A stretch of DNA of 64,000 nt from Candidatus Aldehydirespiratoraceae bacterium. Its GTDB lineage: Bacteria; Actinomycetota; Acidimicrobiia; Acidimicrobiales; Aldehydirespiratoraceae. How positions within the stretch are numbered: the first letter of the stretch is position 1; every line of letters starts with the position of its first letter. The notes beneath the pieces were generated by a model. The model was not told the origin of the DNA, made no database searches, and saw nothing but the letters and a program-made list of their open reading frames with translations. A program made the position numbers and the translations under genes. Shown here piece by piece: positions 45,728 through 49,465 of the stretch. The stretch is from contig CBDFKX010000002.1 in NCBI GenBank assembly GCA_965249055.1, positions 1,481,835-1,545,834 of the forward strand, in the 5' to 3' direction.

Positions 45728-45919
45728 ACGAGCGAACCCTCCGGTTTCTGGGCCTACATGTGCGGCGAAGTCATCGCCACCTGCCCCTCAACTTGACCAG
45801 ACTGGAGTTCTTGTCCTGCCCAGCAGTCTGCTGAGTGATCTGCGGGATCGTTCGGCGAAACCAACTAGGGTCTGGCGCTGATGGCTGGAGGCCGACGAGA
45901 GGAGGACCTTGGGGTGGTG

Positions 45920-46912
45920 ATGTCCTCGGAGGTTGCGGGTCGGGTTCCGCTCGTTGACTTGTCGGGAGCGTTCGAGCCAGGCCGACGGCGCGATCACGCC
46001 GTTGAGGCGATCAGGCGGGCCTGCGAAGAAGTGGGTTTTCTGGTCATTACAGGTCACGGAGTCAGCAGCGAAACCGTGCAAAGGATCGAAGAAGTCTCCC
46101 GCCAATTCTTCGCCCTCCGGATTACCGAGAAGATGAAACTCATGTGCCCGGAAGGCAACAGGCGGGGCTATAAGCCTCTCGGTGGCACGCTGCTGGCGTC
46201 GTCACGTGGGGTTGAGACACCCCCAGACCTGTGCGAGTTGTACCTCCTCAACCGGTTTGATGACTCCGAAGCGGCCCGGCGCGCTGGATTGCGCGAAGGC
46301 CGCGAAGCCTTCTTCGCGCCAAACGTCTGGCCTGACCCAGAGCAGGTTCTGAATTTCCGGGAGACCTTCGAGACCTACTACGCGGTGATGGAGGGTTTGG
46401 CCGCCAGGCTGATGGCCTTGATGGCGCTGGCCCTCGGCCTGAACGAGCACTGGTTCGACGACAAGATCGCCGACCATGTCACGGCCCTCTCCGCCATCCA
46501 CTACCCGGCCCTTGGCGTAGCCCCTCTCCCCGGGCAGTACCGACGCGGGCCGCATTCGGACTGGGGCAGCCTCACTGTGTTGCACCATGACGGTGGACCG
46601 GGTCTGCAGATCATGTCGCCCGAAGGCCAATGGGAGGACGTACCGGTGGTCCGCGGGTCCTTTGTGGTGAATATCGGTGACCTGATGGCAATGTGGACCA
46701 ACGACCGTTGGGTTTCGACGGTGCACCGCGTCGTCGTGCCATCCGATGACTGGCGTGAGCGGATCTCGATCGCGTTCTTCCACCAACCGACTTACGACGC
46801 ACGCATCGAATGCATCCCCACCTGCACGTCAACCGACGACCCTCCTCGTCATGAACCGACCACTTCAGGCGAGTGGCTGGAATCGATGATCGACAAGACC
46901 ACCGCCTATTGA
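45920..46912 (+). CDS. 2OG-Fe(II) oxygenase (isopenicillin-N-synthase-like family)
   Basis: VPLVDLSG...GFLVITGHGV (DIOX_N), HSDWGSLTVLHHD, WVSTVHRV. Confidence 0.75.
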   Translation: MSSEVAGRVPLVDLSGAFEPGRRRDHAVEAIRRACEEVGFLVITGHGVSSETVQRIEEVSRQFFALRITEKMKLMCPEGNRRGYKPLGGTLLASSRGVETPPDLCELYLLNRFDDSEAARRAGLREGREAFFAPNVWPDPEQVLNFRETFETYYAVMEGLAARLMALMALALGLNEHWFDDKIADHVTALSAIHYPALGVAPLPGQYRRGPHSDWGSLTVLHHDGGPGLQIMSPEGQWEDVPVVRGSFVVNIGDLMAMWTNDRWVSTVHRVVVPSDDWRERISIAFFHQPTYDARIECIPTCTSTDDPPRHEPTTSGEWLESMIDKTTAY

Positions 46913-46989
46913 CGGAGCGGCCAAGACTCGATGTCTCCGAACCTCTAGCATGAGTGCCGGCTGGGACGTACCAAAGACCGGGAGGTCGC

Positions 46990-48009
46990 ATGAACCCTCG
47001 AAGAGACATGGTCATCGGTGCCATTGCCTGCATCGTCATCTTCTTCTTCTTTGTCAGCATCGATTTGTACGAGACAGTCTCGGACTTCACGAGTGAACAC
47101 GAGGGCTGGCAACTCGTTGAGATCCTGGCGGCTGTGCCTACGCTCGCCCTGGTCACCTCCTGGTTCGCCGTGCGGCGCTGGCTGGAAGTAGCCCACCTCA
47201 ACGACAGGCTGGCTCATACCGTCGGACAACTCAAAGAAGCGATTAATGAACGCCAGGCCATGGAGGAACAGATCGGCGAGGCTTACAAAATGGCGGCGAT
47301 GGGCGCGCTATCTGGAGGGCTCACCCGGGAACTCAACAATGTGATGCAGCCGATCGTGACCTTGGCGCAACTGGGAGTCGACCAAATCGACCAAAGCGAG
47401 GCGCAACGGGAGAATATGGGTCGCATACTCTTGGCGGCGGAGCGTGGTTGCAAGATTCTCGAGAGTTCATTGGCTGACCCTGTTGGCGGATTCGGTGACG
47501 CAGAAGAGATCATCCCGTCGCAGGGGTTGTCGAGTGTGATTGCCCAGGTAGGAAAGTCGGTCGGAAACGATGTGACGATTGTGTCCCGCTTCAGCGACGA
47601 GGGTGGCGTGATCTCAGTGAACCGTGAAGAATTCGACTCGGTGTTTACGAGTTTGCTGACCAACGCGGCACAGGCCATGAAGCGTGGGGGCGAGATCACG
47701 GTGGGACTCTCGACCCGCACACTTGACGAGGCCCAGGCGAGTGTGCAGGGAGTTTCAGCTGGCAGCTACTTCAGTGTCACTGTGGCCGACCAAGGCATTG
47801 GCATGACCGATGATGTGCGAACCCAAGTTTTTGATCCGTTCTTCACAACCAAATCGGCCGACGGATGCGCCGGTCTGGGTCTCACCATCGCCTATGAACA
47901 GGTTCACGGATGGTCGGGCAGGATCACTGCGGAATCGTCTTATGGTGAGGGTTCGACGTTCGAAGTTCTCATCCCCCACCACCATGCAGACGAAGCCCCA
48001 GGAGCCTGA
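46990..48009 (+). CDS. membrane histidine-kinase-like protein with Arg in place of the H-box histidine
   Basis: Two N-terminal TM segments. DHp-like ...MGALSGGLTRELNNVMQPI (expected AHELNNP). Intact N, G1 (DQGIGM), F (FDPFFTTK) and G2 (GLGLTIA) boxes. Confidence 0.7.
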   Translation: MNPRRDMVIGAIACIVIFFFFVSIDLYETVSDFTSEHEGWQLVEILAAVPTLALVTSWFAVRRWLEVAHLNDRLAHTVGQLKEAINERQAMEEQIGEAYKMAAMGALSGGLTRELNNVMQPIVTLAQLGVDQIDQSEAQRENMGRILLAAERGCKILESSLADPVGGFGDAEEIIPSQGLSSVIAQVGKSVGNDVTIVSRFSDEGGVISVNREEFDSVFTSLLTNAAQAMKRGGEITVGLSTRTLDEAQASVQGVSAGSYFSVTVADQGIGMTDDVRTQVFDPFFTTKSADGCAGLGLTIAYEQVHGWSGRITAESSYGEGSTFEVLIPHHHADEAPGA

Positions 48010-48012
48010 ATA

Positions 48013-48384
48013 ATGGCGACCGTGTTGGTGGTTGACGACGACCCGGGGGTGCGCTTTGCGCTGACGCGGCTTTTGGATGCTTGTGGTGACCATGAGGTAA
48101 TCGAAGCCGACAGCTGCGAAGCAGCGCTGGAGCTAATGGCTTCCCGCAAGCCGGACCTGGTTTTGACAGAGTCCGTGATGCCGACAATGACCGCGATCGA
48201 GTACATAAAGGCGTTGCGCTGGGCCTGCCCTCGCGCCGGGATCGTGGCTTTGTCTGCGGGTGGTATGCACCAAAGCCCAGAGTTCGCTACCGGCCTTGCC
48301 AGCACCGCAGGAGCCGACGAAGTCCTGCGCAAACCTGTCAAAAACGAACCCCTGCTAGCCGCCGTCAACAAAGTCCTCCGCTGA
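48013..48384 (+). CDS. stand-alone receiver domain with Glu at the phospho-acceptor position
   Basis: VLVVDDDPG..., PDLVLTESVMP (expected DLVLLDxxMP), VALSAG, LRKPV. Confidence 0.75.
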   Translation: MATVLVVDDDPGVRFALTRLLDACGDHEVIEADSCEAALELMASRKPDLVLTESVMPTMTAIEYIKALRWACPRAGIVALSAGGMHQSPEFATGLASTAGADEVLRKPVKNEPLLAAVNKVLR

Positions 48385-48731
48385 GCCCCCGGATTGCCTT
48401 CCCGCAAACCGGCTTGCTCCTAACGGAAGGTGCTCCAAGAGGCGAGGTAAGATAGTGCGGATGGACGGATCGACTGGATCTGCTGCTGATGACGCTGCGC
48501 TTCAGAAGCTCCTTGAAGCTTGCCAACTGTACGAGGACTATTTGGCCGTCAGGTCTGTCGCCGAGTCGGCGACGCTTCGTGATCTGGCGACCAAGGCCGT
48601 GTCTGAGGACAGCTACCTAGACCACGCCTCGACTCGCCGACATGAAATATCGGTCCAGAAAGACTCATATGTCCAAGCGCTGAGGTCCGCCACCGCGGAC
48701 ACCGACGGTCTGGTTTCAGGAGATGTGCGAA

Positions 48732-49115
48732 ATGGCTCTTGCTGAGATAGCAGTGGTTGGCTCCCTAGGCTCCACCTCAGAGCCAGCATTGCTAGCTGCG
48801 GTGCACAAAGCACTGGTCACCGGACTCAGTGTGCCAGAAGACGACCCGACCGTCCTTCTCTCTGACGCGTCGACCAAGAACGCATTATTACCAGGGAAGC
48901 TCGCAAGGATGGTTCTTGTCAGGGTAACGATGTTTGTGGGTCGTAGCCCGGCGACGCTTTCCAAGTTGCACGCAATTATCGCTACCGAACTGAACGCTGC
49001 TGGCATCGAATCAGACGAGATCAGAACGGTCTTCATCGAAACCACAGTGTCCAACTGGGGGATAGCTGGACGGCCGCAGAACGTTGCGAGCGTGGGCTTT
49101 CAGATTCACAGATGA
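48732..49115 (+). CDS. tautomerase-superfamily-like protein (Tautomerase_2 type)
   Basis: ...VRVTMFVGRSPATLSKLHAIIATEL...DEIRTVFIETTVSNWG. The N-terminus is MA..., not the catalytic MP.... Confidence 0.35.
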   Translation: MALAEIAVVGSLGSTSEPALLAAVHKALVTGLSVPEDDPTVLLSDASTKNALLPGKLARMVLVRVTMFVGRSPATLSKLHAIIATELNAAGIESDEIRTVFIETTVSNWGIAGRPQNVASVGFQIHR

Positions 49116-49234: not shown

Positions 49235-49465
49235 TTGATGATCCGAACCGTGACGTTCGACTGCTACGGTACGTTGATTGATTGGGACACCGGCGTGTTG
49301 CAGGCGATCGCTGATGCCTGCGCTGAGTCGCGACAATTCGATGACCAGATTGCGCTCAAGTCCTTTGATCGGGCAGAAATCCTTTCCACTTCTAAGCCGT
49401 ACCGCTCTTACAGAGAAGTCCTCGCCGAAGTAGCGCGGGCCACAGGATCCTACGCGTATTTGTGA
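49235..49465 (+). pseudogene. HAD-superfamily (haloacid dehalogenase type II-like) N-terminal fragment
   Basis: VTFDCYGTLIDWDTG (DxYGTL motif I). Only 76 codons; motifs II-IV are absent. Confidence 0.5.

Follow-up and report, generated by a model that had tools for sequence, protein, structure and literature searches.

The main finding of this study is a two-gene locus in which a histidine-kinase-like protein and its receiver both carry a substitution at the residue that normally accepts the phosphoryl group. The locus lies in a stretch of 64,000 nucleotides (the window) from Candidatus Aldehydirespiratoraceae bacterium (contig CBDFKX010000002.1, positions 1,481,835 to 1,545,834), whose genome (G000) comprises 3.59 Mb in 2 contigs. 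The list of open reading frames (ORFs) and their translations gives the kinase-like gene, encoding P0001 (339 aa), at 46990..48009 and the single-domain receiver gene, encoding P0002 (123 aa; Response_reg 1.5e-17), at 48013..48384, stop codons included; like all features of the window described below, both are on the forward strand. P0001 has arginine (Arg113) at the position of the phospho-histidine, and P0002 has glutamate (Glu53) at that of the phospho-aspartate. With moderate confidence, we regard the two proteins as an anciently fixed and selectively maintained pseudo-two-component pair, which signals by binding and not by His-to-Asp phosphotransfer. A first-pass annotation of the window had suggested a phosphorylation-independent pair, and, as far as sequence comparison goes, this suggestion is supported by the clade-wide presence of Arg and Glu and by purifying selection.

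Both phospho-acceptor residues are substituted

Arg113 is encoded by CGG at 47326..47328. In phmmer alignments to solved structures, GGLT-R-ELNN of P0001 aligns with GGVA-H-DFNN of CckA (5idj) and with TMA-H-EINN of LvrB (8vc9), which places Arg113 in the phospho-His column and confirms the arginine that had been read there. Class I HisKA-type kinases have the phospho-accepting H-box His in helix 1 of the DHp domain; P0001 has Arg113 instead. At the adjacent position 112, most members have Thr and some have Ile or Val. A search of the clade alignment for an alternative acceptor found no invariant His anywhere in the Arg-bearing kinases. E114, N116 and N117 of the ExxN motif, which corresponds to the E/DxxT/N phosphatase motif beside the His site, are invariant or nearly so. 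Next to Arg113, such a phosphatase motif is meaningless without a phosphorylatable partner.

The remaining architecture of P0001 is that of a membrane-bound sensor kinase. A first transmembrane (TM) helix is predicted at residues about 7-25 (47008..47064; hydrophobic stretch MVIGAIACIVIFFFFVSID; helix 3-34 in the AlphaFold2 model) and a second one, conserved in sequence family-wide, at residues about 41-62 (47110..47175). The external loop between them has only about 15 aa, and in the AlphaFold2 model the second helix runs unbroken through the linker into DHp helix 1 (helix 42-127), so that P0001 looks like a kinase of the intramembrane-sensing or membrane-anchored type. The DHp-like helical hairpin spans residues about 96-162 (47275..47475) according to the alignment to the DHp domains of CckA 5idj and LvrB 8vc9, and corresponds to the modelled helices 42-127 and 137-162. 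Of the 13 Arg-clade representatives aligned, 12 share its docking helix RELNNVMQPIVTL without change, and the other, P0023, has Leu in place of Met.

The hairpin is followed by an ATP-binding CA domain of the GHKL type (residues about 172-330; 47503..47979), and this order of domains is found in the alignment to CckA DHp-CA (residues 96-332), in the AlphaFold2 model and in the Foldseek matches. The Pfam model HATPase_c matches residues 215-330 (9.9e-17), and N225, D267, G269, G271, F281, F284 and G295-L298 are invariant in 23/23 aligned family members; to judge by these motif residues, the N, G1, F and G2 boxes of a sensor kinase are all present. The pLDDT is 83-92 over most of residues 172-330 and about 50 at the ATP-lid loop 286-296. 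WalK, LvrB, CckA DHp-CA (5idj), CckA CA (5idm, TM-score 0.81), HK853 and DivL (4q20) are the best Foldseek matches of the model, and the nearest NCBIfam models are VirA-like, CckA and AtoS kinases, every one far under its cut-off. The membrane anchors, the DHp-like helix and the ATP-binding boxes described in the first-pass annotation were therefore found again, with one correction: the residues before GLGL are GCA and not the canonical, commoner G-T. The two residues preceding GLGL vary in both the Arg and the His clade.

We also considered the missing Pfam HisKA match of P0001 as a sign of degeneration, but rejected it, since the His-bearing relatives lack such a match too and its absence is therefore a trait of the whole family. 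According to Collins and Childers, as cited in PMC12632262, a pseudo-histidine kinase is a kinase-like protein that has lost at least one kinase function and has nevertheless been retained. P0001 corresponds to this definition, as its His is gone and the gene is kept under purifying selection.

The receiver P0002 matches Response_reg over model positions 1-111 of 111 (Pfam), so that the PF00072 domain appears to be present at full length. It also matches 100 receivers in the PDB as well as single-domain and other receivers in NCBIfam. Its 123 aa contain the receiver model only and no output domain. GAG at 48169..48171 encodes Glu53. In phmmer alignments to CheY-type receivers of solved structure, DLVLT-E-SVMP aligns with DLILT-D-INMP and DLVTM-D-IVMP, and the glutamate that had been proposed for the acceptor site indeed falls into the phospho-Asp column; at the end of beta3, P0002 thus has Glu53 instead of the phospho-accepting Asp. 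For neither protein did the alignments to profiles and structures place a different conserved His or Asp in the acceptor column.

The other members of the active-site quintet, i.e. the acidic pair, the Thr/Ser and the Lys, are retained. These are the acidic pocket D8-D9-D10 (48034..48042; invariant in 23 Glu-type receiver representatives), Ser81 at the conserved Thr/Ser position within ALSAGG (48253..48255; clade-wide receiver alignment) and Lys107-Pro108 at the conserved Lys position (48331..48336; invariant in the receiver alignments). D8-D10, S81 and K107 are invariant in the clade, and all the pocket residues listed in the earlier annotation were recovered. P0002 therefore fits the description of an Asp-less receiver (ALR) or pseudo-receiver, that is, a PF00072 domain that lacks the Asp to be phosphorylated. 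The clade comparison found no invariant Asp, Ser or Thr that had arisen in the receiver with the switch. The Thr/Ser position is followed by a stretch GGMHQ(S/T/N)PE(F/L)A with an invariant His86 (48253-48290 in the window; same region in L013-L017), which is common to the Asp-bearing and the Glu-bearing receiver clades.

Arg and Glu occur together in the orthologous pairs

Among the database homologues, Arg is present in 25/25 kinase cluster representatives of the clade (58-93% identity) and Glu in 23/23 receiver representatives (at least 60% identity), which also have DDD, ALSAGG and KP wherever they are full-length. The kinase homologues sampled at 39-52% identity carry His. Orthologues of the pair exist in 15 of the 17 genomes of the same genus. 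None were found in the other genera sampled from the family, order and phylum, and a phylum-wide sample of 400 genomes revealed no further ones (kinase search, E <= 1e-45).

For the analysis of pairing, we fetched the genomic context of 18 kinase loci, of which 14 are of the Arg type (12 from the same genus and two deep ones) and four of the His type. An intact receiver frame with Glu is present at 13 of the 14 Arg-type loci (L001, L002, L004-L012, L016, L018), although the receiver of L018 is visible only to residue 59, where the contig ends. The fourteenth locus, L003, has Glu as well, but its frame is shifted near the receiver start. Arg and Glu are thus combined at all 12 loci of the same genus, and the deepest Arg kinases, P0024 and P0026 (61% and 58% kinase identity), are also followed by Glu receivers (VVVTE). 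In contrast, the His kinases P0029, P0032, P0034 and P0035 each have an Asp receiver (LTD, ITD or VTD) 3-18 nt downstream (4/4 at L013, L014, L015 and L017). Intermediate Arg/Asp or His/Glu pairs were absent among the sampled loci. The co-variation of the two residues, which had been put forward as a subject for an ortholog survey, consequently holds for 14/14 Arg loci with Glu and 4/4 His loci with Asp. A recent decay, with canonical His and Asp in the orthologs, is not borne out, since the orthologues of the clade keep Arg and Glu.

As to the frameshift of L003, an extra C in the run GACGACGACCC(C)GGGGG, at about codon 11, shifts the receiver frame after MATVLVADDD. It may be an assembly error or indicate a real pseudogene, the genome in question (G011) being a metagenome-assembled genome (MAG) in 430 contigs. 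The same locus reads LKP where the other genomes have RKP. Among the proteins from metagenome databases, P0036, P0274, P0289 and P0316 have garbled C-terminal halves rich in Arg, Pro and Gly, as is typical of frameshifts; these are probably indels from long-read assembly and not biology.

Additional profile searches did not extend the survey. A search of contigs with the family alignment gave no family members among the matches listed, and the generic pattern FDPFFTT[KR] drew unrelated kinases. The 80 unrelated kinase loci listed there can serve as a rough baseline: the H-box His is present in 62 of the 63 that match a loose motif, and the exception is apparently spurious. The receiver profile search yielded mostly an unrelated large family of 125-aa receivers and left the Glu and Asp counts unchanged.

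The two genes are also closely linked in their layout. The coupling junction (48000..48015) consists of an AGGAG Shine-Dalgarno sequence at 48000-48004, which sits inside the 3' end of the kinase gene, the TGA at 48007-48009, a gap of 3 nt and the ATG at 48013, in accordance with the spacing noted in the first-pass annotation. Nearly all relatives have a 3-nt gap or else a TAATG/TAGTG stop/start overlap (L004, L006, L010) at this junction. The conservation of this gap or short overlap, together with the Shine-Dalgarno sequence, implies that kinase and receiver are co-translated. For the start of P0001, the alignment of orthologues, which begin with MNPRRD, favours the ATG at 46990 over an upstream GTG at 46954.

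The substitutions are old and the genes remain under purifying selection

In the phylogeny calculated with IQ-TREE, and again when this was repeated with more taxa, the Arg kinases are monophyletic (100/100) and nested among His-bearing members. Since the Arg clade is monophyletic within these members, both substitutions map to one branch. To judge from the tree, the ancestor was a canonical His/Asp system and both acceptors changed on the same branch.

Within the genus, the median ratio of non-synonymous to synonymous substitution rates (dN/dS, Nei-Gojobori) is 0.126 for the kinase and 0.150 for the receiver, in comparisons whose synonymous divergence reaches saturation. The regions of the kinase have values of 0.084 (TM, residues 1-62), 0.065 (linker), 0.121 (DHp) and 0.167 (CA). 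The codon for Arg113 is CGG, CGA or CGC in the clade, and the corresponding codon in the His-bearing relatives is CAC or CAT; Glu53 is encoded by GAG or GAA, and the Asp in the partners of the His kinases by GAC or GAT. The purifying selection on both genes and the synonymous variation at both codons argue against random decay. That random decay is the less likely course, as proposed earlier, thus agrees with a dN/dS of 0.13-0.15, with synonymous drift of the codons and with the clade-wide Arg and Glu.

Only six kinase columns separate the Arg clade from its relatives (95, 113, 157, 301, 304 and 326), and Arg113 is the sole radical change among them. The separating columns of the receiver cluster at the active site, namely at the D, D+1 and D+2 positions, in the beta3-alpha3 loop and at T+1 and K+2. 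This location around the active site fits a remodelled pocket.

A second His-less lineage exists in the same family. An exhaustive profile search returned extra full-length family members, most of which carry His. P0267 (L099:3001-4014; H-box GGFA-G-ELRR) and P0289 have Gly for His in the motif GGF(A/S)-G-(E/A)LRR, and P0301 (L100:585-1571) has Ala at the His column. These Gly/Ala kinases form a separate clade (100/100) on a long stem, with His-bearing members between them and the Arg clade, which indicates a second, independent loss of His. The ATP boxes of this lineage are still present and its ExxN/NN motif is degraded. A tblastn search of both contigs found neither a receiver gene nor a remnant of one 3' of the Gly/Ala kinases. 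In L099, a contig of 26 kb, the next gene is GyrA/ParC-like and lies 284 nt away; the second contig counts for little here, as it ends about 345 nt past the kinase stop, which is less than the length of a 123-aa receiver gene. The family therefore shows two outcomes of His loss: either the receiver is gone and the H-box decayed, or Arg and Glu are present with an otherwise intact H-box. From this contrast we argue that the combination of Arg and Glu is functional and maintained, and not a step in decay.

A possible mechanism of signalling by binding

In the mechanism that we propose for the pair, canonical His-to-Asp phosphotransfer would be lost, while the sensor would still transduce a signal. 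Continued sensing is suggested by the TM and linker regions, which are the most constrained parts of the kinase. The CA domain probably still binds nucleotide, given its conservation, and the output would be a signal- and nucleotide-dependent change in the way the DHp/CA core binds and releases the receiver. Glu53, together with Ser81, Lys107 and the acidic pocket, might hold the receiver in a conformation resembling the phosphorylated one, and the released receiver would act on some target by protein-protein contact.

In the classical docking geometry, His and Asp face each other across the phosphoryl group, as is established from HK853-RR468 structures such as 3DGE and 5UHT, which are among the structural matches obtained here. 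The side chains of Arg113 and Glu53 are longer and oppositely charged, and one may speculate that they form a salt bridge across the former phosphoryl gap. If real, such a bridge would explain why both partners changed jointly. As to the binding of the receiver as such, a prediction of its complex with two copies of kinase residues 85-339 gave an ipSAE of 0.57, whereas none of the 3 controls exceeded 0.00. At least 76% of the contacts are shared between runs, the partner pLDDT is 80 or more, and the outcome was graded 'weak support'. The mark that it passed is reached by 58/80 solved complexes and 2/110 mismatched pairs, but at an ipSAE of 0.60 or less by only 7/80 solved complexes and by both of the passing mismatches. 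The pass may reflect only the likeness to solved kinase-receiver complexes.

Among the residues that replace the phospho-Asp, Glu is the most frequent (26% of Asp-less receivers), and from engineered Asp-to-Glu mutants it is known as a partial, but not universal, phosphomimic (PMC4395418, PMC12632262).

Several points weigh against signalling by binding as we propose it. Since both changes map to one branch, the counts of co-variation are not independent replicates: the co-variation is a single evolutionary event and gives no statistical ground for saying that one change depended on the other. The receiver of one locus (L003) is frameshifted. Retained ATP binding and kinase-receiver binding are deduced from conservation and from the one weak complex prediction, and the conformation of the Glu receiver is likewise deduced. 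The intact DDD, Ser, Lys and ATP boxes exceed the obvious needs of a pure binding role, and the second acidic residue is kept in only 29% of Asp-less receivers generally (PMC4395418); with the catalytic residues so completely retained, some residual chemistry is conceivable. In ChxR and other cases, constitutive activity has been shown to have a cause other than the Glu at this site (PMC4395418, PMC12632262). Finally, a comparison of the flanks across lineages revealed no conserved neighbour gene that would hint at the output.

Alternative explanations

It is conceivable, though in our opinion unlikely, that the pair does not form a self-contained pathway but modulates other, canonical two-component systems. 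In this case, the kinase would heterodimerise or serve as a scaffold like DivL or RetS, and the receiver would be a docking competitor or inhibitor like Osp, FixT and possibly CmrT. There are documented single-domain receiver-like proteins that bind the transmitter domains of kinases and block their autophosphorylation (PMC9430884), the pseudo-kinase DivL reads the state of a receiver (PMC4211667), and the genome encodes other kinases and about nine receiver domains with which such a modulator could interact. The conserved DHp docking helix (12/13 identical) would suit this role, too. However, no second kinase or receiver adjoins the pair, no candidate for the partner was identified, and the translational coupling, being conserved, points to a mutual action of the two proteins. 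Moreover, their His/Asp ancestor was already a tightly coupled two-gene module in varied genomic contexts. Less probable still is a CA domain that has remained an active kinase and uses a new acceptor; this would be a Ser, Thr or Tyr, either its own or one in the receiver or some third protein. Precedents among GHKL proteins are the Ser kinases SpoIIAB and RsbW, the mitochondrial BCKDK and PDK and the kinase-related domains of plant ethylene receptors and phytochromes. The ATP-binding residues have stayed invariant long after the loss of His, the CA domain is under purifying selection (dN/dS of 0.167), and both proteins contain Ser, Thr and Tyr residues that never vary, such as T52 next to Glu53, Y64 and S81. 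But the Asp-bearing relatives have T52 and S81 as well, which means that no new acceptor came with the switch, and the neighbour of Arg113 at position 112 is not always Thr. The sequence features of known Ser-kinase GHKL proteins were not found either, and no such profile is among the top NCBIfam and Pfam matches.

The retention of the catalytic residues would be accounted for by a non-canonical relay, in which the GHKL domain phosphorylates Arg113 to a phosphoramidate and the group passes to Glu53 as an acyl (glutamyl) phosphate. If true, this would explain why, the two acceptors apart, the catalytic residues have all been invariant for so long. In both substitutions, the new acceptor atom belongs to the same chemical class as the old one, all catalysing residues are in place (ATP boxes, ExxN, DDD, Ser and Lys), and Glu is phosphorylatable in principle according to a survey of Asp-less receivers (PMC4395418). 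We nevertheless give such a relay very little credence, as receivers mutated from Asp to Glu serve as phosphomimics that cannot be phosphorylated (PMC12632262), and the longer side chains, with a phosphoryl group in line between them, would need a rearranged interface. In addition, we know of no GHKL kinase that phosphorylates Arg, and the protein Arg kinases known to us have another fold. A milder, likewise speculative version would also be new: the salt bridge between Arg113 and Glu53 might mimic the transfer state, so that the kinase-substrate encounter has become a signal-gated latch. The opposite extreme, a functionless relic heading for loss, is disfavoured and in our view very improbable. 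The frameshifted receiver of L003 (+1 C), the absence of the pair from 2/17 genomes of the same genus and the related His-less lineage that has already lost its receiver could be cited for it. On the other hand, the dN/dS of 0.13-0.15 was maintained over synonymous divergence up to saturation, both acceptor codons show silent changes with no change of residue, the remaining motifs are invariant throughout, and 13/14 Arg-type loci have an unbroken reading frame (in L018 as far as residue 59, where the visible receiver ends). We retain the maintained pseudo-two-component pair as the favoured explanation.

Genomic neighbourhood

Directly upstream of the pair lies a gene for a 2OG-Fe(II) oxygenase (DIOX_N and 2OG-FeII_Oxy; 45881-46912). 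Since this neighbour is common to only 6/11 other loci of the same genus, it is probably not functionally linked. We had also considered a conserved neighbourhood as a clue to the output, but this was rejected, as the flanking genes differ between lineages and the oxygenase occurs only in the closest relatives. Downstream of the receiver, an ORF of 96 aa without a Pfam match (48455-48745) overlaps the start of a tautomerase-like ORF (48723-49115; Tautomerase_2, 6.1e-08). About the first 60 residues of the 96-aa ORF are conserved, but only in the closest relatives, and neither of the two ORFs adjoins the pair in more distant genomes. An ORF of 76 aa (49235-49465) shows only the N-terminal motif of HAD-like hydrolases (E 0.0016) and may be a truncated or frameshifted gene.

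Comparison with known systems

Nearly all pseudo-kinases and pseudo-receivers that have been studied are, to our knowledge, orphans without a known partner. Here, the partner is known through translational coupling, and both proteins are small and intact in all but the two acceptor residues. The His/Asp orthologues (39-52% kinase identity) provide a built-in natural control, and the sister lineage shows the loss of His together with that of the receiver. The pair is thus a compact and well-controlled natural system for the question of what two-component proteins do once phosphotransfer is gone, and it gives access to more specific questions, namely whether Glu locks the state of the receiver, whether nucleotide gates the interaction and whether the two substitutions depend on each other. 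His is missing from about 0.9% of HisKA domains and Asp from about 2% of receivers, and the on/off switching of bacterial pseudo-receivers has been called a mystery in a review (PMC12632262).

With canonical systems of a class I kinase and a receiver, such as CckA, LvrB, NtrB and HK853-RR468, the pair shares the TM anchor, the DHp and CA domains, the CheY-like receiver and the arrangement in one operon, and it has direct His/Asp orthologues of this type. Unlike in these systems, both acceptors are replaced (Arg113 and Glu53), which makes the defining chemistry impossible as it is known. DivL from Caulobacter, in which Tyr replaces His, is likewise His-less, retained and functional and binds a single-domain receiver (PMC4211667, PMC5361649). 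However, DivL reads the phosphorylation of a true receiver, DivK, which is phosphorylated by other kinases, whereas the cognate receiver of P0001 has no canonical site. PsmA, a hybrid histidine pseudokinase from Streptomyces, is also actinobacterial, has lost the H-box His and is conserved in its lineage; its His position varies (Glu, Asp, Gln, Val or Tyr), its ATP and ExxN motifs are degenerate and its receiver Asp is kept (PMC12963549). The pair described here differs on each of these points, with a fixed Arg, invariant ATP and ExxN motifs and a Glu receiver.

There are similar differences on the side of the receiver. ChxR, the plant PRR/TOC1 proteins and the fungal Rim15p also have Glu for the phospho-Asp (PMC4395418, PMC12632262). 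Most Glu-type pseudo-receivers carry output domains, whereas P0002 is a stand-alone receiver which is coupled to a His-less partner and keeps DDD, Ser and Lys. Osp and FixT are receiver-like single domains that dock on a kinase transmitter without being phosphorylated, but they keep the Asp, lack the acidic pair or the Lys and target an active kinase (PMC9430884). In P0002, it is the acidic pair and the Lys that are kept and the Asp that is lost, and its partner is not an active His kinase. In full-text searches of the literature, we found no published cognate, operon-coupled pair with both acceptors replaced and the rest intact, which is not proof of absence. Pseudo-kinases and Asp-less receivers are each already known; the new part is a cognate pair in which both are substituted together.

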